A model generated the notes under the pieces. It ran no database searches. It saw only the letters and a program-made list of their open reading frames with translations, and was not told the origin of the DNA. Made by a program: the position numbers and the translations under genes. 64,000 nt of DNA from Arenicellales bacterium (GTDB lineage Bacteria; Pseudomonadota; Gammaproteobacteria; Arenicellales; Poriferihabitantaceae), in NCBI GenBank assembly GCA_963665165.1, contig OY761989.1:350417-414416 (forward strand). The letters run 5' to 3'. How positions within the stretch are numbered: position 1 is the first letter of the stretch; each line of letters opens with the position of its first letter. Below, one piece after another: positions 32,716 to 47,285 of the stretch.

Positions 32716-33495
32716 TCACCCCGCCGGCGCCGGAACCGCCCCGCGCCTCAACAATTCACACGCCAGCGCCGTATAGGCCCGCGCCCCGGCGCAGTTGCGG
32801 TCATATTCCAGCACCGGTTTACCGTGGCTCGGGGCCTCCGCCAGGCGCACATTCCGGGGAATGATCGTGCGGAACAGCTTTTCGGGGAAATGTTCGGCCA
32901 GTTGCTCCGAGACTTCGACACCCAGGTTGTTGCGACCATCATACATGGTGCGGAACAACCCCAGGATTTCCAGCCCGGGATTCAGTCTGCGCTTGACCAG
33001 CGCAATGGTCTCGACCAGACTGGTCAACCCTTCCAGCGCATAGTATTCACATTGCACCGGTATCAGCGCCTCGCCAGCCGCGGTCAATGAGTTGACCGTC
33101 AGGACATTCAACGCAGGCGCACAATCGATCAGCACCACGTCAAAATTCCGGGCGGTGGCGGCCAGCGCGTTTTTCAACCGATGGTCGCGTTGTTCATGCC
33201 GCATCAGTTCGACCTGGACACCCGACAGATCCGGATGGGACGGCAGGACGCTGAACCCGTAATCGGTAACGACCAGCGCGTCATTAATATCACATTCATC
33301 CACCAGGACTTCGTAGACACTGTTTTCCATTTCCCGCATGGCCACCCCGCACCCCACCGTTGCATTCCCCTGCGGGTCCATGTCAACCAGCAGTACACGG
33401 CTCTGTGCATAGCTGAGTGAAGACGCCAGATTGATTGCAGTCGTGGTTTTACCCACCCCTCCTTTCTGGTTTGTGATGGCGATGATTCGGGTCAA
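32716..33495 (-). CDS. parA: Chromosome partitioning ATPase ParA/Soj
   Basis: NQKGGVGKTT deviant Walker A, DPQGN, QCEYYALEG, IPRNVRLAEAPS. Confidence 0.96.
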   Translation of the reverse strand: MTRIIAITNQKGGVGKTTTAINLASSLSYAQSRVLLVDMDPQGNATVGCGVAMREMENSVYEVLVDECDINDALVVTDYGFSVLPSHPDLSGVQVELMRHEQRDHRLKNALAATARNFDVVLIDCAPALNVLTVNSLTAAGEALIPVQCEYYALEGLTSLVETIALVKRRLNPGLEILGLFRTMYDGRNNLGVEVSEQLAEHFPEKLFRTIIPRNVRLAEAPSHGKPVLEYDRNCAGARAYTALACELLRRGAVPAPAG

Positions 33496-33496
33496 T

Positions 33497-34135
33497 TTAA
33501 AATTCGACTATGACAATATGCCTCTGGGCGTTCAACCAGGGTATATCGATTTTTTCAACCGTAACGCGCGTTCTGACTTCTGCGGGCAATTCCGCAATCT
33601 CCCCTTCCGGGTATTTCCCCTTGAATGCAAGCAGACGAGCCCCCCGGGACCGGCACCGCCCGGTCAGTTCCACAAGCCTCGCCAGCGACGAGAATGCGCG
33701 TGCCGCAAGCGTATCAAATTTTTGTTGCGGCCGATAATCCTCCACCCGACTTTTTTGCAGTGATATATTGTCCAGTTCCAGGCTCTGGCAGGCATACCGG
33801 AGGAATTCGATCCGCTTTCCCCGACTGTCCAGCAAGGTAAGCTCGGTGTCCGGGTCAACAATAGCCAGGGGAATACCGGGAAATCCGGCGCCGGAGCCAA
33901 TATCGAGTATCCTGCTCCCCCTTATCCAGGGCATGACTCCCAGGGAATCCAGGACGTGATGGACAACCATGTCGCCGCGATTCGTGATCGCAGTCAGATT
34001 CAGGCGCCGGTTCCATTTTTCGACCAGGTCAATATGGTCCAGCAACTGTTGCCGCTGCGCCTTGCTGACCTGGATGTTCATTTGCCGGCATCCTTCATCC
34101 AGTTTTTCCTGCAATTCTTCCGGCGCGGCTTTCAC
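33497..34135 (-). CDS. rsmG: 16S rRNA G527 methyltransferase (GidB)
   Basis: KWNRRLNLTAI, HVLDSL, DIGSGAGFPG, ARAF. Confidence 0.96.
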   Translation of the reverse strand: MKAAPEELQEKLDEGCRQMNIQVSKAQRQQLLDHIDLVEKWNRRLNLTAITNRGDMVVHHVLDSLGVMPWIRGSRILDIGSGAGFPGIPLAIVDPDTELTLLDSRGKRIEFLRYACQSLELDNISLQKSRVEDYRPQQKFDTLAARAFSSLARLVELTGRCRSRGARLLAFKGKYPEGEIAELPAEVRTRVTVEKIDIPWLNAQRHIVIVEF

Positions 34136-34988: not shown

Positions 34989-36593
34989 CTATCCCAGCTT
35001 CGGGCCGGCCGTTGCCAAGGCTTTCCCTTCATCGGTGTCTTCGTATTTTTTGAAGTTTTCGATAAACAGGGTGGCCAGCGACCTTGCCCTTCTGTCCCAC
35101 TCGGCCGGGTCGGCATAGGTGTTCCTGGGGTCCAGAATATTGTTGTCAACCCCTTCCAGAACAACCGGCACCGACAAATTGAAAAACGGTATCGTGGTGA
35201 AGGCGGCTTTCTCCATTCCGCCATTCAAAATCGCGTGGATGATCGCCCGGGTGGCCTGTATGGAAATTCGTCTGCCGCTCCCGTTCCAGCCCGTATTGAC
35301 CAGATACGCACGGGCATTCACCGCCTCCATTTTCCTGGCCAGCTCCCGGGCATACCGGGTTGGATGCAGACTCAAAAACGCGGCGCCAAAACAGGCGGAG
35401 AAAGTCGGTGTCGGTTTATCCACGCCTCTTTCCGTACCGGCCAGCTTGGCGGTAAAGCCAGACAGGAAATGATACTTGGTCTGCTCCGCGGTTAATCTCG
35501 ATACTGGCGGCAACACGCCAAAAGCATCCGCCGACAGAAAAATGATCCGGCTCGCGTGTCCTCCCTTCGAAACCGGTTTGACAATATTGTCTATATGGTG
35601 GATCGGATAGGAAACCCGGGTATTCTGGGTCTTTGAATCATCCTCAAAATCAATCTCGCCATTCGGAAGAACCGTCACATTTTCAAGCAGCGCGTCCCGG
35701 CGCACGGCATGGTAGATATCGGGTTCGGACTCTGCGTTCAGCCCGATGGTCTTGGCATAGCAACCCCCTTCGAAATTGAAAACACCGTCATCATCCCAGC
35801 CATGTTCATCATCACCGATCAGTTTCCGCCGGGGGTCGGTGGACAAGGTGGTTTTACCCGTCCCCGACAATCCGAAAAAGATGGCTGTTTCGCCTTCATC
35901 GGAGACATTGGCGGAACAATGCATCGACGCCATACCACGCAGGGGAAGCAGGTAGTTCATGATCGAAAACAGCCCTTTTTTCATTTCGCCTCCATACCAG
36001 GTGCCGCCAATGACCTGCATCTTTTCAGTCAGGTTGAACGCGATAAAATTTTCCGAGTTCAGCCCCATTTCCCGCCAGTGCGGATTGGTCGCCCTGGCGC
36101 CATTCAGCACAACGAAATCGGGTGCAAAGTTCTCAAGCTCGGCCGGTTCCGGCCGGATAAACATGTTTTTTACAAAATGCGCCTGCCAGGCCACCTCCAT
36201 GACAAACCGGACCGCGAGGCGGCTGCCTGGATTCGCCCCGCAAAAGGCATCCACAACGAACAATCGTTTGCCTGACAACTGGCCGGCGACCCTGCTTTTG
36301 AGAATTTCCCAATTCTCCTGCGACAGGGGTTTGTTGTCATTCTCTCCCTGGTCGGCCCACCAGAAAGTATCCCGTGTCACATCATCGCGCACAATATACT
36401 TGTCCCGGGGCGACCGTCCCGTAAAAATTCCGGTATCGACGGATACGGCGCCGCTTGCGGTGAGCCGGCCTCTTTCATAGCCGTTCAGGTCTGGCCGGGT
36501 TTCTTCTTCGAAGAGCGTCCGGTAATCCGGATTGCAGATGATTTCCGTAGCGTTTTCTATGCCGTATTTCAGTAAATCTGCCTGTATTGTCAT
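34989..36593 (-). CDS. pckA: Phosphoenolpyruvate carboxykinase (ATP)
   Basis: [45 protein letters not shown]. Confidence 0.98.
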
Positions 36594-36802
36594 TATGATC
36601 GGAGGGCGTGTACAAACTGGTGATTCTAATGGTTTTTATAAACTAATTCTAATAACCCGTCCGGACGGCCTCCCCCAAAGGCCGGTGACGCGGGCAGTTG
36701 TCAATTTCCGATTCTCCGGTAAAATGCCCCACTTCGCCAGTAATAGCGCTATTGGCTGGTTCCAGGCTGTTACTTTTTCATTACTGTTTCCGGAAATCAT
36801 AA

Positions 36803-36967
36803 ATGAGCGAATGCCCTGTATGCGGTGGAGAAATTACCCTGGCGGACGATGTCGTCACGGGTGAATTGCTTGAATGCGGTGATTGCGGGTCGGAGCTCGA
36901 AGTCACCTCGCTGGACCCGGTAGAGCTTGAAGAGGCTCCCGAGGCAGAAGAAGATTGGGGTCAATAA
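36803..36967 (+). CDS. lysW: Amino-group carrier protein LysW (54 aa, absent from the ORF track), C-terminus EDWGQ
   Basis: Hand translation: [54 protein letters not shown]; two CxxC zinc-ribbon motifs, highly acidic, first gene of a lysXYZJ operon. Confidence 0.95.
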
Positions 36968-37803
36968 CCGTCGGCTTTCTGCATTCACTGGTCAGAAGGG
37001 AGGAAAAACTTCTGATCGGGGAATTCAACCAGCGCCGGAATGTCAATCTGGTCCTGATCGATGACCGCCGGCTTTGTTTCGATTTGAAGCATCGCCCCGA
37101 AGTCGACGTGATCGTCGAACGCAGCATCAATCACTCACGGGCGCTTCATGCGCTCAGGCTTTACCAGGGCCTCGGAATCCCCTGCGTAAACAGTTATGAC
37201 GTTTCCCTGACTTGCGGTGACAAGATACTCACTGCGGCGGCATTGCAGGATCACGGCGTTGCGCAGCCGGATTTGAGAATCGCCTTCACGATCGAGTCCG
37301 CTCTCAAAGCCATTGAGGAGCTCGGCTATCCGGTGGTGCTGAAACCCGCCGTCGGCTCCTGGGGCAGGCTGTTGTCCAGGGTAAATGACCGGGACGCCGC
37401 GGAAACCATCCTCGAACACAAGGCTGTTCTCGGCAGCTACCACCATTCCATCTTTTTCATACAAAAATATATCGACAAAAGAGGCCGGGACATTCGCGCG
37501 TTTGTAGTGGGAAACGATTGTATCGCCGCGATTTACCGCAGCTCCACGCACTGGATCACGAATACCGCCCGTGGAGCGACGGCCAGTTGCTGCCCGGTCA
37601 CTCCGGAATTGGGTGAACTCTGCCTGAGCGCCGCGAAAGCGGTCGGTGGCGGCGTATTGGCTATCGACCTGTTCGAATCAACTGACGGCTTTCTGGTCAA
37701 TGAAGTAAACTACACCATGGAATTTCGAAACAGTATCGACACCACAGGTATTCATATTCCGGGCAAGGTGGTGGATCATGTCCTGTCCTGCACAAATGGC
37801 TGA
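36955..37803 (+). CDS. lysX: ATP-grasp LysW ligase (LysX/ArgX, RimK family)
   Basis: [50 protein letters not shown]. Confidence 0.92.
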
Positions 37804-37814
37804 CCCCGAAAACC

Positions 37815-38861
37815 ATGCCGGATAACCCTCCTCCCGTACGGGTTTCGATTGCCGGCGGCAGCGGTTACGCCGGTGGCGAACTGGTCCGGTTATTGCTGGA
37901 TCATCCCGGCGCCAGCCTGCATCAGGTCACTTCGGAGCGGTTTGCGGGAAAGCGGGTGAGCCGGGTTCACCCGAATCTGCGCAAAATAACCACGCTCCCG
38001 TTCTGTTCAATCGCCGACCTTGAACCATGCGATCTGCTGTTCCTGAGTCTGCCCCATGGTCACGCGATGCAAAAACTCGGGCATTTCAAATCCCTGGCGC
38101 CGAAAATAATTGATCTGAGCGGGGATTTCCGGTTACAGGACGCGACGGCATACCGCACCTGGTACGGACGCGACCACTGTTGCCCCGAATATTTAAGCCA
38201 ATTCGTTTATGGCATCCCGGAAATCAACCGGAATGCCATCCGCAACGCTTCACGGGTTACCGGCGCCGGATGCAACGCCACTGCGGCCCTGCTCGGGCTG
38301 CGCCCCGTCTTCAGGCGCGGCCTTGCAACCAGGGCTGTGATCGAGGTCAAGGTGGGTTCCAGCGAGGGAGGTAACCGCATATCCGAAGCCAGTCACCATC
38401 CGGAACGATCCGGCGCCGTGAGGTCGTACAAGCCAACCGGGCACCGCCACATCGCGGAAATACTCCAGGAATTGGGGCCGGGTACGGATATTTCCCTGTC
38501 CGCCACCGCCATTGAAATGGTGCGCGGCATACTGGCTACGTGTCATGTTTTTCTGAAGCAACCGATGACGGAGAAGGAAATATGGAAAATCTACCGGCAG
38601 GAGTATGCAGACGAGCCATTTGTCCGGATCATCAAGGAGGCGACCGGAATTTACCGCTATCCCGAACCCAAATTGTTGAGCGGAACCAACTATTGCGACA
38701 TCGGTTTTGAAATTGACCCGCACAGTAATCGTCTGGTCGTCCTGAGCGCCATAGACAATCTGATGAAAGGCGCGGCGGGCCAGGCCGTCCAGGCATTCAA
38801 TCTGATGTGCGGTTTCCCCGAACGGACAGCGCTGGGATTCACCGGGCTGCATCCGGCCTGA
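37815..38861 (+). CDS. lysY: LysW-gamma-aminoadipyl/glutamyl-phosphate reductase (LysY, ArgC family)
   Basis: GGSGYAGGE, DLSGDFRL, GAGCNATA catalytic Cys, SHHPERSG, DNLMKGAAGQAVQ. Confidence 0.9.
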   Translation: MPDNPPPVRVSIAGGSGYAGGELVRLLLDHPGASLHQVTSERFAGKRVSRVHPNLRKITTLPFCSIADLEPCDLLFLSLPHGHAMQKLGHFKSLAPKIIDLSGDFRLQDATAYRTWYGRDHCCPEYLSQFVYGIPEINRNAIRNASRVTGAGCNATAALLGLRPVFRRGLATRAVIEVKVGSSEGGNRISEASHHPERSGAVRSYKPTGHRHIAEILQELGPGTDISLSATAIEMVRGILATCHVFLKQPMTEKEIWKIYRQEYADEPFVRIIKEATGIYRYPEPKLLSGTNYCDIGFEIDPHSNRLVVLSAIDNLMKGAAGQAVQAFNLMCGFPERTALGFTGLHPA

Positions 38862-38878
38862 ACCCTGGAGGTCAAGCC

Positions 38879-39532
38879 GTGTGCCGGTTATTACTGTTGG
38901 AGCGCCGGGGCGGGATGGAGCCCGGCCCTCATCTTGACGCTTTCAGGGCGCTTTCGAAAAACAGCCCGGAGTACCAGGGGCATGGCTGGGGATGCGCCTG
39001 GCTGAACCCGGATCGTTCCTGGTCCCTGCACCACAGTATCCAGCCAGTCTGGGAGGATACCCGCTCATTTCCGGAAACCACGTTGTTTCTGGCTCATGCA
39101 AGAAGCGCTTTTCGCAACGAGGGGATTACGGTTCGAAACAACATGCCATTTTGTGACGGCAGTCGGGTCTTCCTGTTCAATGGCGAACTGCGCGGTGTCA
39201 GAATAAAGGCCGAAGGCAGAATTGGCGCCGAAAAGATATTCAACACGCTCAGGAAATTCAACTCGGGCGATATTTCTGAAGCCGTCCGGCGCGGCGTGGA
39301 GGTCATTAACAAACGAACCCGTTATGTCCGGGCGATGAACTTTTTCCTTGCGGATTCCAGGACAGTCCGGATTTACAGCCAGTTTTCCGAAAACCCCGAT
39401 TACTTCCAGTTGCGCGGGACTACCTGCGATGATGTCCGGGTTGTCTGCTCGCAAACCTACGACTCAGGCGGCAGTCACTGGCACAGGATACCCAACAACC
39501 ATTTCTACGCCATCGACCTGGCCCGGGACTGA
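38879..39532 (+). CDS. Class II glutamine amidotransferase-like Ntn hydrolase (EgtC/YafJ-like), 217 aa
   Basis: GGAGG RBS 38867-38871, 7 nt before GTG 38879, giving M-C-R (N-terminal Cys nucleophile); HGWG, LAHARSA, NNMPF, FNGEL. Confidence 0.85.
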   Translation: MCRLLLLERRGGMEPGPHLDAFRALSKNSPEYQGHGWGCAWLNPDRSWSLHHSIQPVWEDTRSFPETTLFLAHARSAFRNEGITVRNNMPFCDGSRVFLFNGELRGVRIKAEGRIGAEKIFNTLRKFNSGDISEAVRRGVEVINKRTRYVRAMNFFLADSRTVRIYSQFSENPDYFQLRGTTCDDVRVVCSQTYDSGGSHWHRIPNNHFYAIDLARD

Positions 39533-40324
39533 ATGATTATCATAAAAATCGGCGGCGGAGAGGCGATCAACCTGCCCGAAATCATCCAGGACCTGGTGGC
39601 GCTCGAACAGCCGTATCTCGTGGTTCACGGCGCGAACGCCTTGCGCGATCATATTGTGGAGAAAATGGGTTTCACCAAAAACATCGTGACTTCCCTCTCC
39701 GGCTATAGCAGTGTTTTTTCCGATGACAATGCCCTTGACGCCATTATGATGGCGTACAGCGGATTGCGAAACAAGCGCATCGTTGAATTATTCCAGCGCC
39801 ATGGCGTCAACGCAGTGGGGCTGACCGGGCTGGATGGGCGGCTTGTGCAGGGAGTTCGCAATAAAGGCATCCGGGTAATGGAAAACGGCAAAAAAATGTT
39901 GAAAAGAGACCGCTCCGGCAAGCCGGAAAGGATCAATACCGGCCTGGTCAACCTGTTGATGGGTGAAGGTTATGTTCCGGTACTGACCATCCCCATCTGC
40001 GACGAAAACGGCTACGCAATCAATTCGGAGAATGACGACGTGGTTGCCCGGTTCCAGGCTGCTCTCGGGGCGGATACGATCATCCAGTTGATCGAGGCTG
40101 CCGGCCTGCTGGAAGACATCGGCAACCCGGACTCACTGATCCGGAAAGTGTGTCGATCGGAACTCGCCACACGCGAACGGATGGCGCAAGGCAGAATGAG
40201 GCGGAAGCTGCATGCCCTGAACCGGATAGCCCGCGCCGGGAATGCCAGAATCATCCTCTGCGATGGGCGAATCGAACAACCGATTACGGCGGCCCTGGCC
40301 GGCGGCGGCACCTGGATCGAGTAA
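39533..40324 (+). CDS. lysZ: LysW-gamma-aminoadipate/glutamate kinase (LysZ, ArgB family)
   Basis: IKIGGG, VVHGAN, GLTGLDG, GRMRRKL basic patch, C-terminal GGGT. Confidence 0.9.
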   Translation: MIIIKIGGGEAINLPEIIQDLVALEQPYLVVHGANALRDHIVEKMGFTKNIVTSLSGYSSVFSDDNALDAIMMAYSGLRNKRIVELFQRHGVNAVGLTGLDGRLVQGVRNKGIRVMENGKKMLKRDRSGKPERINTGLVNLLMGEGYVPVLTIPICDENGYAINSENDDVVARFQAALGADTIIQLIEAAGLLEDIGNPDSLIRKVCRSELATRERMAQGRMRRKLHALNRIARAGNARIILCDGRIEQPITAALAGGGTWIE

Positions 40325-40332
40325 AAACGGCC

Positions 40333-41484
40333 ATGCTGCTCGAACAAAAATACGGTTTTGAGGTCTACCCGAAACGTGAGATAACCCTGGTTCGCGGACA
40401 GGGGGCGCTGGTCTGGGATGACCGGGGCAATTCGTATATCGACTGCGCCGCCGGAATTGGCGTCGCCAGTATCGGTCATGCCAATCCGGTCGTGGCGCGG
40501 GCGCTAAAACGCCAGGCGGACCGGCTGGTTTCGTGTCCGGGCATCTTCTACAACGATATCCGGGGCGAGTGGATGGAGAAACTGGTGTCCATCAGCCCGA
40601 CCGGCCTGAATCGGGTTTTCCTCTGCAATTCCGGTACGGAGGCCGTCGAGGCCGCCTTGAAATTCGCCCGCATCACCACCGGGAAAAACGGCTTCATCAG
40701 CGCCATGCGCGGGTTTCACGGACGAACGATGGGCGCGCTGAGCGCGACCTTCAAGTACCGGGACGAATTTGAGCCGCTGCTTCCCGGCCACCGCTTCGTG
40801 CCCTTCAACAACCTGGAAAAACTGGTCCGGGCGATTGACGATGAGACCGCCGCCATTCTTCTGGAAGTCGTCCAGGGTGACGGCGGCGTTCGACCGGCAG
40901 ACAACCGCTATCTCCAGGCCGTGCGGGAAATTTGCGATACCAGCGGGATCCTGCTGATCATCGACGAGGTGCAGACCGGGTTCGCCCGCACCGGAAAAAT
41001 GTTTGCCTGCGAGCATTCCGGCGTACAGCCGGATATCATGACACTGGCAAAAGCAATCGCCGGCGGATTCCCGATGGGCGCCGTGCTGTGCAATGACCGT
41101 ATCTCTCCGGCGCTGGCGAAACATGGCTCCACTTTTGGCGGCAACCCGCTTGCTTGCGCCGCGGCGCTGGCAACCATCGGGTTTATTGAAGACCAGGCGC
41201 TCCCGGAGCAGGCGCGGCTGAAAGGCCGCCAGTTGGTGGGCCAGCTTGAAACCGGGCCCCTGCCGGGGGTACGGGAAATCCGCAATCTTGGATTGATGGT
41301 GGGAATCGAGCTGAAATCGAAAGCCCGCCCGGTGATCGAAAACCTGTTGAGGAACCGTGTTTTAGCGTTGCCCGCCGGTCCCACCGTAGTCCGCTTGCTG
41401 CCTCCTCTCGTCATAACCGGGGAGCAACTGTCTGAAGTCGCCGACCGCATCCACCAGGCGCTGGCCGAGGCCGCCCGGCGGTAA
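40333..41484 (+). CDS. lysJ: LysW-semialdehyde aminotransferase (LysJ, ArgD class III PLP enzyme)
   Basis: CNSGTEAVEAALK, FHGRTMG, DEVQTG, TLAKAIAGG, HGSTFGGNP; ATG 40333. Confidence 0.9.
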   Translation: MLLEQKYGFEVYPKREITLVRGQGALVWDDRGNSYIDCAAGIGVASIGHANPVVARALKRQADRLVSCPGIFYNDIRGEWMEKLVSISPTGLNRVFLCNSGTEAVEAALKFARITTGKNGFISAMRGFHGRTMGALSATFKYRDEFEPLLPGHRFVPFNNLEKLVRAIDDETAAILLEVVQGDGGVRPADNRYLQAVREICDTSGILLIIDEVQTGFARTGKMFACEHSGVQPDIMTLAKAIAGGFPMGAVLCNDRISPALAKHGSTFGGNPLACAAALATIGFIEDQALPEQARLKGRQLVGQLETGPLPGVREIRNLGLMVGIELKSKARPVIENLLRNRVLALPAGPTVVRLLPPLVITGEQLSEVADRIHQALAEAARR

Positions 41485-41505
41485 AAAGCGGCCGCTCCGT
41501 CCGTA

Positions 41506-43074
41506 TCAGGGTTGCTTTTCCCTGAAATCGAATATGTCCACGCGGTCGCCCTTGCGGCCTTCGAAAGTCATGGCTGGAGATTCGCCGATCCGGGATAGAA
41601 TACGCTGGTAATACCCGTCCAGGCCACTCCTGTCGGCGCGGATTGCGATTAGATCCATCCTGTCTTTCAAGGTCTCCGGGTTGGCTATCGCACCGAGATA
41701 ATGCCTGTGGGGCAGAAATACATCCTGCCCCGCGTAATAGTCGAGGATTCGATTGTTGCTGTAGATCCGGAAGCGGTGATAATCGTCGCCGGTTTGTTGC
41801 CTGATCCAGGTTCCGGCTTCCCGCAGATGATGTTTTGAGGTAAACCGGTCCAGCCCTTCCAGGGAATTGATCAACAGCACAAAACCGGTGGCGGCGCAGA
41901 CCGCCTTTGTTTTCCGGCTCATTCTGCCCGCGATTCTGCCCGAACGGCAAAGCGCGGTAACCGCGAACGGAACCAGCAGCATGGTCATCACCGACAAGGT
42001 AAGCGGGTAGCGGTCATTGTACAGGAATCTGAGCGCCGCGAAAGCGGCCAGTATCAGGATGTTGATCACAACGATGATTTTCCAGCACTGCCACGCCTGT
42101 TTGAAACCGGGCGTCTGTCTGTCCAGCCACGGCCGGACAAACATCCCGGCCATCAGGATCAGCACATAACCCAATGTCAGTATTTCAAGAAAATTGAAAA
42201 TCGCTTTCGCAAAAGGCAGCATCACCGCTGCCGGGTAGAGCCCTTTCTCCAGAGCGGACCGCCACATTCCGGGGGCCAGGTTGTCGATATACCCCAGCAA
42301 CTCGGTTTTCGGCGGCAGCCAGATTTTCGGGACCAGTTCCCGGGCGACCGATATCCTGCCGTCATACAGCCAGTACAAAGTGGCATAACCGAGTAACGCC
42401 AGTAAAACCAGCGCGGCGGAGATTGCCAGCTTCCGGGTCAGCCATGCCGGGGTATACCGGCCCGAAACCAGCATCCAGAACAGGATAATGCCGAGGTATA
42501 CCATTCCTTCGATACGAAAAATCGTAGCCAGCAAGCCGGTAAGGAGAAACGCGGCCAGGCCACGGTTGTTCGGGCGCTGCCAGGTTTGCACGAAAAACAC
42601 CATCATCCACAGGAAACAGGCGATATAGGGTATATCGCGCATGATCATGGACTGTATTTCATTCAATCCCGGGTAAAACAGATAGACGAACCCGGCCAGC
42701 CAGACCTGGGTTTTGTCGGCTCCCAGCATTTCGCTGAGTCGGATGAACGCGATTCCACCCACCGCACGCATGGCCGCGCCGAATATCAGTGCTGCATACT
42801 CGGCGGGCAGCGGTGTGATTTTGCTGATGACAGCGAGCATCAGCGGATAAAAAGGCCACTTGTACCAGGCAAGCCCGTCCTGGAAATTACCTTCGGCAAA
42901 TGCGTTTGCCGTCATCACATACCGGACCCCGTCCTCATTGATGACCGGGTCAATGTAATAACTCCACAAGGCGACAAGCAGGGAGCCGGCAACCACGCAC
43001 CCGTAAACCGGAACCCGGCTTCCTGATTCAATCCTGTATCGCAACGGGCAACCGGATTGCAAACGGGCAGCCAT
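41506..43074 (-). CDS. Polytopic membrane protein, GT-C/ArnT-like glycosyltransferase candidate
   Basis: N-terminal TM followed by IN-E-DG..Y loop, WPFYP, IMRD, FRIEG, DRY; many TMs plus a soluble C-terminal domain. Confidence 0.55.
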   Translation of the reverse strand: MAARLQSGCPLRYRIESGSRVPVYGCVVAGSLLVALWSYYIDPVINEDGVRYVMTANAFAEGNFQDGLAWYKWPFYPLMLAVISKITPLPAEYAALIFGAAMRAVGGIAFIRLSEMLGADKTQVWLAGFVYLFYPGLNEIQSMIMRDIPYIACFLWMMVFFVQTWQRPNNRGLAAFLLTGLLATIFRIEGMVYLGIILFWMLVSGRYTPAWLTRKLAISAALVLLALLGYATLYWLYDGRISVARELVPKIWLPPKTELLGYIDNLAPGMWRSALEKGLYPAAVMLPFAKAIFNFLEILTLGYVLILMAGMFVRPWLDRQTPGFKQAWQCWKIIVVINILILAAFAALRFLYNDRYPLTLSVMTMLLVPFAVTALCRSGRIAGRMSRKTKAVCAATGFVLLINSLEGLDRFTSKHHLREAGTWIRQQTGDDYHRFRIYSNNRILDYYAGQDVFLPHRHYLGAIANPETLKDRMDLIAIRADRSGLDGYYQRILSRIGESPAMTFEGRKGDRVDIFDFREKQP

Positions 43075-45935: not shown

Positions 45936-47285
45936 GTGACGACCCCACAGTTCTGGAATCCTTGCCTGCAAAAACTAAGGGAAGTCCTGTCCGATGAGGA
46001 TGTGGAAACCTGGCTAGCCCCGCTGCATGTATTTTATGACAGAAACACACTGAAATTACTGGCGCCCAATCGCTATGTTCTGAACCATGTGAAACTCAAT
46101 CTTTTCCCGGAGGTCGAGAAAGTGGTTATGAATATGGACGCGGGAGTCAATAATATCCGGCTGGAAATCGGGAGTTACGGCCTGGACAGCCCGTTCGACT
46201 CAAACGGCGGCGGCCAGGGTCAGGACCCGGCCCGGCGGCGCCCTGGTTCCGACACCCCGTATTCCAGCGGGACATTGAACCCCGACTTTGTCTTTTCCAC
46301 CCATATTGAAGGCAAGTCCAACGAATTGGCCAGGGCGGCGGCGCTCCAGGTGAGTCAGAACCCTGGCACTGCCTATAACCCCCTGTTTATTTACGGCGGT
46401 GTAGGACTGGGTAAAACCCATCTGATGCAGGCTGCGGGAAACATGATTCTCGAAAGGAAACCCGACGCAAAGGTGATTTATGTGCATTCGGAGTTGTTCG
46501 TGAACGACATGGTCAAGGCGGTAATGGACAACACAATGGCCAGATTCAAGGAATACTACCGCTCATTGGACGCGTTATTGATCGACGACATCCAGTTTTT
46601 TGCCGGGAAACAACAATCGCAGGAACAGTTTTTCCATACATTCAACTCTTTGCTCGGGGGCCAGCGGCAGATCATTATTACCAGTGACAGCATCCCAAAC
46701 GCGATCAATGGTATCGAAGCTCGCCTGATATCCCGGTTCAGCAGCGGCCTGATCATGGCTGTCGAACCTCCGGAACTTGAAACGCGGGTCGCCATTCTGG
46801 AAAAGAAAGCGCTGCTGAAAGGGATATCCCTGCCCAAAGAGGTCGCTTTTTTTGTAGCCCATAATGTCCACTCCAATGTCCGGGATCTGGAAGGCGCGCT
46901 GAACCGGATCATTGCCAGCGCCAGCTTTACCGGCCATCATATTGATCTGGAGATAGCCAGACAGGCGCTGTCGGATATCCTGATTTACCGCAAAAGCAAA
47001 ATAAATATCGAGAATATCCAGCAAGTGGTCGCGGCCCATTACAAGATACGGGTTTCGGACATGCTCTCAAAAAGACGCCACCAGTCAATATCGAGACCCC
47101 GTCAGTTGGCCATGGTCCTGACCAGGGAACTGACCAGCATGAGTCTGCCGGAAATTGGTGACCGTTTTGGCGGCCGGGACCACTCAACGGTACTCCATGC
47201 CTGTCGAAAAATACAAGAGCTGAGGAAAACCGATCTCAAGGTCCGGGAAGATTACCAGAATCTCCTGCAGTTGCTGGAACCCTAG
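45936..47285 (+). CDS. dnaA: Chromosomal replication initiator DnaA
   Basis: YNPLFIYGGVGLGKTHL, LLIDDIQF, NVRDLEGAL, GGRDHSTVLHA. Confidence 0.99.
   Translation: MTTPQFWNPCLQKLREVLSDEDVETWLAPLHVFYDRNTLKLLAPNRYVLNHVKLNLFPEVEKVVMNMDAGVNNIRLEIGSYGLDSPFDSNGGGQGQDPARRRPGSDTPYSSGTLNPDFVFSTHIEGKSNELARAAALQVSQNPGTAYNPLFIYGGVGLGKTHLMQAAGNMILERKPDAKVIYVHSELFVNDMVKAVMDNTMARFKEYYRSLDALLIDDIQFFAGKQQSQEQFFHTFNSLLGGQRQIIITSDSIPNAINGIEARLISRFSSGLIMAVEPPELETRVAILEKKALLKGISLPKEVAFFVAHNVHSNVRDLEGALNRIIASASFTGHHIDLEIARQALSDILIYRKSKINIENIQQVVAAHYKIRVSDMLSKRRHQSISRPRQLAMVLTRELTSMSLPEIGDRFGGRDHSTVLHACRKIQELRKTDLKVREDYQNLLQLLEP

Follow-up and report, generated by a model that had tools for sequence, protein, structure and literature searches.

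A predicted cysteine Ntn hydrolase as the probable replacement of LysK in a LysW carrier-protein operon of an Arenicellales bacterium and in related operons

How does a LysW carrier-protein pathway release its product, when the operon encoding it contains no LysK? The question is raised by a contig of an Arenicellales bacterium, of which a stretch of 64,000 nucleotides (nt), called here the window, was analysed; coordinates are window positions. In Thermus and Sulfolobus, LysK cleaves the gamma-glutamyl isopeptide which holds lysine or ornithine on LysW, freeing the amino acid, and to our knowledge no other enzyme is known to carry out this final step. In the window, six open reading frames (ORFs), all located on the + strand between 36803 and 41484, follow each other in the order lysW-lysX-lysY-Ntn-lysZ-lysJ, where Ntn denotes a gene for a predicted N-terminal nucleophile (Ntn) hydrolase. 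Sequence comparisons and a structural model indicate that its product is probably a stand-in for LysK, i.e. a gamma-glutamyl amidase releasing the product from LysW, and likely also maturing a carrier which is encoded with a terminal glutamine. The elements of the operon are the following.

36803..36967, + strand: lysW, a 54-residue zinc-ribbon amino-group carrier protein ending in EEDWGQ (PF21344, 74.7 bits, cut-off 27; TIGR01206, 66.8 bits, cut-off 53.2)
36962-36964, + strand: terminal Gln codon of lysW, CAA, followed by TAA (read from the sequence)
36955..37803, + strand: lysX, an ATP-grasp ligase with a TTG start and a 13-nt overlap with lysW (TIGR02144, 320.8 bits, cut-off 275.6)
37815..38861, + strand: lysY, an ArgC-family reductase (TIGR01850, 378.6 bits, cut-off 233.6)
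38867..38871, + strand: GGAGG, ribosome-binding site for the Ntn gene, whose start codon follows after 7 nt (read from the sequence)
38879..39532, + strand: Ntn gene, GTG start, 217 residues beginning M-C-R, a predicted class II glutamine-amidotransferase-fold cysteine hydrolase (fold model, conservation and context)
39533..40324, + strand: lysZ, a [LysW]-aminoadipate/glutamate kinase, whose start abuts the Ntn stop codon (NF010659, 254.4 bits, cut-off 223)
40333..41484, + strand: lysJ, a class III aminotransferase (TIGR00707, argD subfamily, 426.2 bits, cut-off 410; the top model is LysJ NF042418, 445.5 bits, under its cut-off of 700)

The intergenic gaps, in operon order, are -13, 11, 17, 0 and 8 nt, and no M20 gene lies in the operon, as described in the initial annotation of the window, which had pointed to a tight six-gene operon devoid of such a gene. 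A good ribosome-binding site and an M-C-R start, also noted there for the additional gene, were found again, the start codon being GTG rather than ATG. LysX, LysZ, LysY and LysJ all exceed the cut-offs of their respective models (TIGR02144, NF010659, TIGR01850 and TIGR00707), and ligation by LysX, phosphorylation by LysZ, reduction by LysY and transamination by LysJ are predicted on the basis of this family membership.

The nature of the inserted gene product was evaluated by modelling its structure (predicted local distance difference test score 90.1, predicted template modelling score 0.90) and comparing the model to solved structures by using Foldseek. Top matches were the EgtC entries 4zfl, 4zfj and 4zfk (E between 8e-13 and 6e-12, template modelling score 0.73-0.80, 17-19% identity). 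PurF and GlmS, matched through their glutaminase domains, ranked next, together with the uncharacterised proteins 1te5 and 3mdn; the probability was 1.00 for EgtC, PurF and GlmS alike. The four-layer Ntn fold of EgtC and of the PurF and GlmS glutaminase domains is recognisable in the predicted model. When the Ntn family profile was searched against the sequences of the PDB, 3mdn ranked best (E 5e-7) and EgtC came next (E 2.7e-4). EgtC, the nearest solved fold, is a stand-alone class II amidotransferase-fold enzyme of the ergothioneine pathway, which bears an N-terminal cysteine and hydrolyses a gamma-glutamyl amide without ammonia transfer.

Relatives of the Ntn protein were found in 2,979 protein clusters at E<=0.001. 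Within an alignment of 71 of them, Cys2 is nearly invariant, being retained in at least 90% of the sequences, and the motifs QGHGWG, H73-A74-R75, NNMPF, F-N101-G102-EL and GRIGAEK are invariant. In profile alignments, the arginine and the Asn-Gly of the family pair with the corresponding residues of 3mdn and EgtC; R75 is presumably the arginine contacting the substrate carboxylate, and N101-G102 the Asn-Gly of the oxyanion hole, as in class II amidotransferases. No Pfam model (GATase_4, GATase_6 or similar) matched the protein even at E up to 10, and family scans returned no Peptidase_M20 match, the fold being that of an Ntn hydrolase. The sole family match, a weak one, was to the EgtC model TIGR03442 (37.1 bits, cut-off 218.65). 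Among the relatives, a few have a precomputed PF13230 annotation, some are labelled 'glutamine amidotransferase' in databases, and the ESM Atlas clusters are automatically named class II glutamine amidotransferase. As judged from sequence and model, the 217-residue protein is therefore a cysteine hydrolase with the class II amidotransferase fold, standing alone and lying outside the EgtC family.

The predicted reaction is the one catalysed by LysK, namely hydrolysis of the gamma-glutamyl isopeptide freeing lysine or ornithine from LysW, although fold and chemistry are unrelated, LysK being a di-metal M20 metallopeptidase of the ArgE/DapE family (models NF003367 and TIGR01902) and the Ntn protein a cysteine hydrolase. 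EgtC differs in other respects: the neighbours of the Ntn gene are lys rather than egt genes, and the gamma-glutamyl group hydrolysed by EgtC is located in a free dipeptide, while the one attacked by the Ntn protein would form a protein terminus. Uncharacterised stand-alone proteins with a class II amidotransferase domain, such as 3mdn and 1te5 (Pfam GATase_4), share superfamily and size with the Ntn protein, but have no LysW context, and GATase_4 does not match the protein of the window.

If the enzyme takes the place of LysK, the two should not be found together, and this was checked at the genome level. The host genome contains five M20 genes, encoding DapE, ArgE, two generic ArgE/DapE deacylases and an allantoate-amidohydrolase-like protein, and no LysK: the best scores were 91.5 bits for NF003367 (cut-off 363) and 95.4 bits for TIGR01902 (cut-off 163.1). 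Similarly, LysK was found in none of 50 other operon-bearing genomes with either model (best scores 108.8 and 99.8 bits, respectively), while 3 and 4 control genomes exceeded the cut-offs of NF003367 and TIGR01902. True LysK genes occur in 14 operons from Acidobacteriota, arranged as W-X-Y-Z-J-M20; all 14 pass TIGR01902, with 252-332 bits, and six of them pass NF003367, for which the range is 342-441 bits. The reciprocal search, performed with the Ntn profile, gave no match in 17 LysK-type genomes and five of five in the positive control. In Gemmatimonadota, LysK was detected in two genomes and the Ntn family in nine, with no overlap. Three operons, in addition, contain an Ntn copy, 30-33% identical, located after lysJ, in the usual position of LysK (L228, L266 and L268).

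These three copies (L228:3105-3857, - strand; L266:6943-7551, + strand; L268:7094-7708, + strand) form a divergent subfamily at the operon end, and a homocitrate-synthase-like gene is present in the same operons. The L228 copy starts with MCRFLLL and contains a 34-residue insert.

Conservation of the gene arrangement was evaluated by scanning one genome per species, for a total of 185,579 species, which yielded about 580 genome stretches encoding a relative of the Ntn protein. Linkage was counted on the best 80 of these stretches, whose identity is 49-87%. The gene is contained within a lys cluster in all 80 loci; in 79 of them lysY is found at most 400 nt upstream or lysZ at most 500 nt downstream, and the full order W-X-Y-Ntn-Z-J is kept in 50, many of the other 30 being cut by contig ends. 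The 80 loci include representatives of Arenicellales, Candidatus Poriferihabitaceae, Thioglobus, Woeseiaceae, Vicinamibacterales, Gemmatimonadota, Longimicrobiales and Melioribacteraceae, and the phyla and classes carrying the Ntn-type operon include Gammaproteobacteria, Acidobacteriota, Gemmatimonadota and Ignavibacteriota. Around the operons, no neighbour beyond the six genes is conserved outside closely related loci; at most 20 loci each have pckA, two unnamed ORFs, a hexapeptide transferase or a CoA-transferase near the operon.

Sampling which did not start from the best-scoring stretches gave similar results. In an even draw of 401 gammaproteobacterial genomes, host included, a true LysW was found in five, and the other four all have the same operon, Ntn gene included, so that the absence of the gene from homologous operons, raised as a possible objection in the initial annotation, was not encountered in the gammaproteobacterial operons identified independently via LysW. 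In Gemmatimonadota, 9 of 151 genomes match the Ntn profile; the eight new ones all have the gene in the operon, and the ninth (G034, locus L056) is among the 80 loci. In Acidobacteriota 18 of 301 genomes match; the gene is located in lys operons in 15 cases, one of which, G602, was judged from match coordinates only and supports no claim made here, and on contigs shorter than 3 kb in two. The remaining genome, G477, contains a weak partial match with no lys gene nearby.

The initial proposal, that the Ntn gene is a non-orthologous replacement of LysK, therefore receives comparative support from the linkage in 80 of 80 loci, from the absence of LysK in the 50 genomes and of Ntn in the 17 LysK-type ones, and from the EgtC-like fold; the anticorrelation of the two families at lysW loci, for which a survey had been suggested, was found in that they never occur together in the genomes searched.

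Some variant arrangements were also observed. The order is W-X-Ntn in L075. In nine loci (L028, L039, L040, L043, L044, L047, L050, L054 and L071) the operon is split, reading W-X-Y-Ntn (lysY-Ntn alone in L050), and lysZ-lysJ are missing from the downstream sequence, which extends for up to 7 kb (2.4 kb in L040); LysZ-like genes are found elsewhere in those of the split-arrangement genomes that were searched. Four of the 80 loci read Ntn-Z-J, and W-X-Y are missing from their upstream sequence of 1-6 kb. In L263, from Gemmatimonadota (G866:C17:20168-20806), the Ntn match contains one in-frame TGA, which may reflect loss of the gene's function, an error in the sequence or recoding of the codon. 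L265 (G554:C28) is composed of a homocitrate-synthase-like gene followed by X-Y-Ntn-Z-J, with no lysW detectable by the Pfam model or by tblastn; its carrier may have diverged, or its gene may lie at another place.

A feature absent from the initial annotation concerns the carrier itself, since the LysW of the window ends in EDWGQ and not in EDWGE. The three solved LysW chains all end in EDWGE; its terminal Glu is described as conserved and as the attachment point of the substrate, and its change abolishes arginine synthesis in Natrinema, according to PMC10433800. Among 86 carriers from Ntn-type operons, 48 end in Gln (Q) and 38 in Glu (E), distributed as follows.

Window: Q 1, E 0
61 of the 80 loci (the other 19 being without a LysW match, mostly at contig ends): Q 35, E 26
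Gammaproteobacteria sample: Q 2, E 2
Acidobacteriota sample: Q 8, E 2
Gemmatimonadota sample: Q 1, E 7
Terminal-copy type, with Ntn after lysJ: Q 1, E 1

For the Acidobacteriota count, L170 and L041 are one and the same place and were entered once, and L245 was counted via the operon of its genome on L271. E is the last residue of all 15 verified carriers from LysK-type operons, and also of three partial ones. When 85 distinct operons are placed on a LysX+LysY tree, obtained by a quick tree search, the operon type (Ntn or LysK) changes once, while the E/Q state changes at least nine times, seven of the changes being forced by well-supported branches, and all of them lying inside the Ntn-type clade.

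A carrier ending in Gln, which could not be ligated until deamidated, would be tolerable only with a gamma-glutamyl amidase at hand, and an enzyme cleaving LysW-gamma-Glu-NH-R is expected to accept R = H. The following mechanism may be proposed. Removal of the initiator methionine would expose Cys2 as the N-terminal nucleophile (Cys1 of the mature protein), which would attack the gamma-glutamyl amide at the LysW C-terminus to give a thioester. As the thioester forms, the finished amino acid would leave with its alpha-amino group free, and hydrolysis of the thioester by water would restore LysW-Glu. In the same way, the encoded terminal Gln would likely be deamidated to the Glu required by LysX, and the Ntn enzyme would act as both maturase and release enzyme.

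The pupylation system offers a parallel, since Dop deamidates Pup-Gln and also removes Pup from the gamma-glutamyl isopeptide, as described in PMC8599861, and its dual activity is a precedent for one enzyme doing both jobs. By analogy, in both systems a tag or carrier would be encoded with a terminal Gln or Glu, one enzyme would deamidate and cleave, and a separate ATP-dependent ligase would use the Glu form. Dop differs in having a glutamine-synthetase fold, with no homology to the Ntn protein, and in using ATP-derived phosphate; moreover, Pup marks proteins for degradation. A literature search, whose coverage did not extend to subscription journals, retrieved no publication describing an Ntn hydrolase which finishes the LysW pathway, in line with the initial annotation, to whose author no characterised example was known.

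Other roles can be imagined for the enzyme. It might only mature LysW-Gln to LysW-Glu, the product being released by ArgE, or by another M20 deacylase of the ArgE/DapE family, encoded elsewhere. Suitable genes exist: besides ArgE and the two generic deacylases of the host, M20 homologues at E<=1e-10 are found in 49 of the 50 other operon genomes, and cross-activity within the family is plausible, given that Thermus LysK is reported to act on N-acetyl substrates as well (PMC12998189). We regard this alternative as unlikely, since none of these M20 genes is linked to the operon, the Ntn copy takes the LysK position in three operons, and the 38 carriers already ending in Glu need no maturation, with the gene still in place. 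Considerably less probable is an editing function, in which the hydrolase would remove misloaded amino acids from LysW, for example Glu in place of aminoadipate, and something else would carry out the release. LysK-type operons do without such an enzyme (none in 17), and the missing release enzyme would still need explaining in 50 of 50 genomes; in favour of editing are the lysine-type signature of the host LysX and the weak loading of Glu by Thermus LysX reported in PMC12998189.

Just as improbable is a true amidotransferase, the Ntn protein being a glutaminase subunit which feeds ammonia to another enzyme. The class II fold, the N-terminal Cys and the database names of the relatives would fit such a role; there is, however, neither a synthase domain nor a conserved partner, as nothing beyond the six genes is conserved, and the amination step of the pathway belongs to the pyridoxal phosphate-dependent transaminase LysJ. 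The mutual exclusion with LysK and the Gln-ended carriers would also be left unexplained. The least probable of the alternatives is that the substrate is joined, in a RimK-like manner, to LysW through the alpha-carboxyl of its terminal residue, so that a terminal E or Q would be neutral and the role of the Ntn protein a different one. LysX is indeed a relative of RimK, and E and Q interchange freely; yet LysX is over the LysX equivalog cut-off, its active-site HWITNTARG is identical to that of Thermus and Thermococcus LysX, and all Q-ended carriers seen were accompanied by a gene for a protein with a gamma-glutamyl amidase fold.

Several observations weigh against the Ntn protein as the predicted LysK stand-in. 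Its identity to EgtC is just 17-19%, its only family match is far below cut-off, and Pfam models do not recognise it. The median isoelectric point of the family, 6.7, gives no sign of a basic surface for LysW docking. The ArgE and generic deacylases of the host, and the M20 genes present in nearly all the other genomes, mean that an M20 enzyme could perform the release. The sample of LysK-type carriers is small (n=15) and, as the Ntn-type operons form one clade, the restriction of Q to Ntn-type operons reflects one origin, followed by nine flips.

Which amino acid is made on the carrier was considered next to the release step. Judging from the genome context, we favour, with some reserve, ornithine derived from glutamate as the product in the host, rather than lysine derived from alpha-aminoadipate. 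The search of the host genome suggested in the initial annotation revealed no LysK, and identified ArgB, ArgC, ArgJ and ArgE of the N-acetyl route, together with DapE and LysA of the diaminopimelate (DAP) route; the host is in this respect the typical gammaproteobacterium assumed in that annotation, which makes lysine by the DAP route and ornithine by the N-acetyl route. A second, canonical argC is found elsewhere in the genome besides lysY. No homocitrate synthase was found in the host, the HMGL-family genes being LeuA, a CimA-like gene, an HMG-CoA lyase and a pyruvate-carboxylase-like gene (a 1,165-residue ORF, named by size). Queries from a lysine-type operon retrieved from the host genome only LeuA, the CimA-like gene, LeuC, LeuD and two genes of the isocitrate dehydrogenase (IDH) family. 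The CimA-like gene was considered as a hidden homocitrate synthase and set aside, its neighbourhood showing nothing telling.

Of 51 operon-bearing genomes, 50 have LysA over cut-off, and none passes the homocitrate synthase model TIGR02146, the two near-misses being located inside their own LysW loci; ArgB passes its cut-off in 45 of 50. Four Gemmatimonadota genomes with the operon have ArgF and lack ArgB and ArgJ, so that the operon is the sole recognisable ornithine route there; the pattern fits a remark on host-associated Gemmatimonadota in PMC11651109.

Other data speak against ornithine. The full N-acetyl route is already present in the host. In 10 of 75 Ntn-type operons, all from Acidobacteriota, Ignavibacteriota or unnamed bacterial metagenome-assembled genomes, lysW and lysX are separated by a gap of at least 900 nt. 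Six of these gaps were scanned, and a short homocitrate-synthase-like gene was found (325-360 bits), with no match for the ORF in L246; one gap-type operon also contains genes of the homoaconitase and homoisocitrate-dehydrogenase families. The homocitrate-synthase-like gene suggests that these 10 are lysine operons. In addition, the signature residues of the host LysX, F-I-T-NS, are those of the Thermus 'LysX type' and not the I-Y-V-GF of the ArgX type, as the two are defined in Table 1 of PMC12998189, the FITNS signature being found in 79 of 86 Ntn-type operons, including those of the host and of Gemmatimonadota. The motif was rejected as an arbiter of the substrate, because it conflicts with the genome context and because motif swaps left specificity unchanged in Natrinema, as reported in PMC10433800.

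Carrier, ligase, kinase, reductase and transaminase families are shared by the host operon and by the LysW/ArgW pathways of Thermus, Sulfolobus, Thermococcus and Natrinema; unlike these, the host has a Gln-ended carrier, an inserted Ntn gene and no LysK, in addition to the DAP and complete N-acetyl ornithine routes. We lean slightly towards a wider reading, according to which the approximately 580 stretches would represent a second, widespread class of amino-group carrier-protein pathways, in which a cysteine Ntn amidase instead of LysK activates the carrier and releases the product, with a logic like that of Dop and Pup, and which would have switched from lysine to ornithine in Gammaproteobacteria and Gemmatimonadota. 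Horizontal spread of the operon is supported at the sequence level by the rarity of LysW in the class, five genomes out of 401, and by the mixing of phyla in the operon tree; the horizontal acquisition proposed in the initial annotation stands in the sense of spread, in one direction or the other.

If the replacement of LysK by the Ntn enzyme is true, pathway reconstructions would be corrected for such genomes, whose LysW-mediated synthesis of ornithine or lysine is at present rated incomplete, and nearly 3,000 protein clusters without a name, forming one family, would be assigned a function. The replacement would also explain how a carrier with an essential Glu can work when encoded with Gln, and would provide, after Pup and Dop, a second natural case of a tag deamidated, then ligated, and cleaved by the same deamidating enzyme.

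Further elements were sought around the operon. A promoter-like site, TTGTCA-16-TAAAAT, is located on the + strand at 36698..36725, 78 nt 5' of lysW, with 10 of 12 positions matching the consensus; it is a consensus match only, four such sites being found in the region against 2.6 expected. No Rfam family was detected at E<=1 across 36300-41800, and no ARG-box pattern was found near the operon, the whole window containing two matches against 4.8 expected. Downstream, a 522-residue ORF resembling a multi-pass membrane protein (41506-43074, - strand) converges on lysJ. Pfam models do not match this ORF, which is kept downstream in nine related loci. The region is flanked by parA and rsmG (- strand; 32716-34135) and by dnaA (+ strand; 45936-47285), named from their translations alone, and the minimum of the cumulative GC skew, at about 44-46 kb, would place the operon at most about 10 kb from the likely replication origin.

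The LysW model also detected proteins of a different kind. It gave 105 matches in Acidobacteriota, of which 100 were examined, the others being two in G602 and those at G624:C95, G584:C5 and G644:C109. Fifty of the 100 examined PF21344 places encode LysW-like zinc ribbons with long poly-acidic tails (e.g. DDDDDEY, EDEDEF), in which the EDWGE motif is absent and around which no lys gene lies within 9 kb (L168, L172, L174, L178-L182, L184-L190 and others). In these proteins the LysW-type ribbon appears to be put to another use, which has no name.

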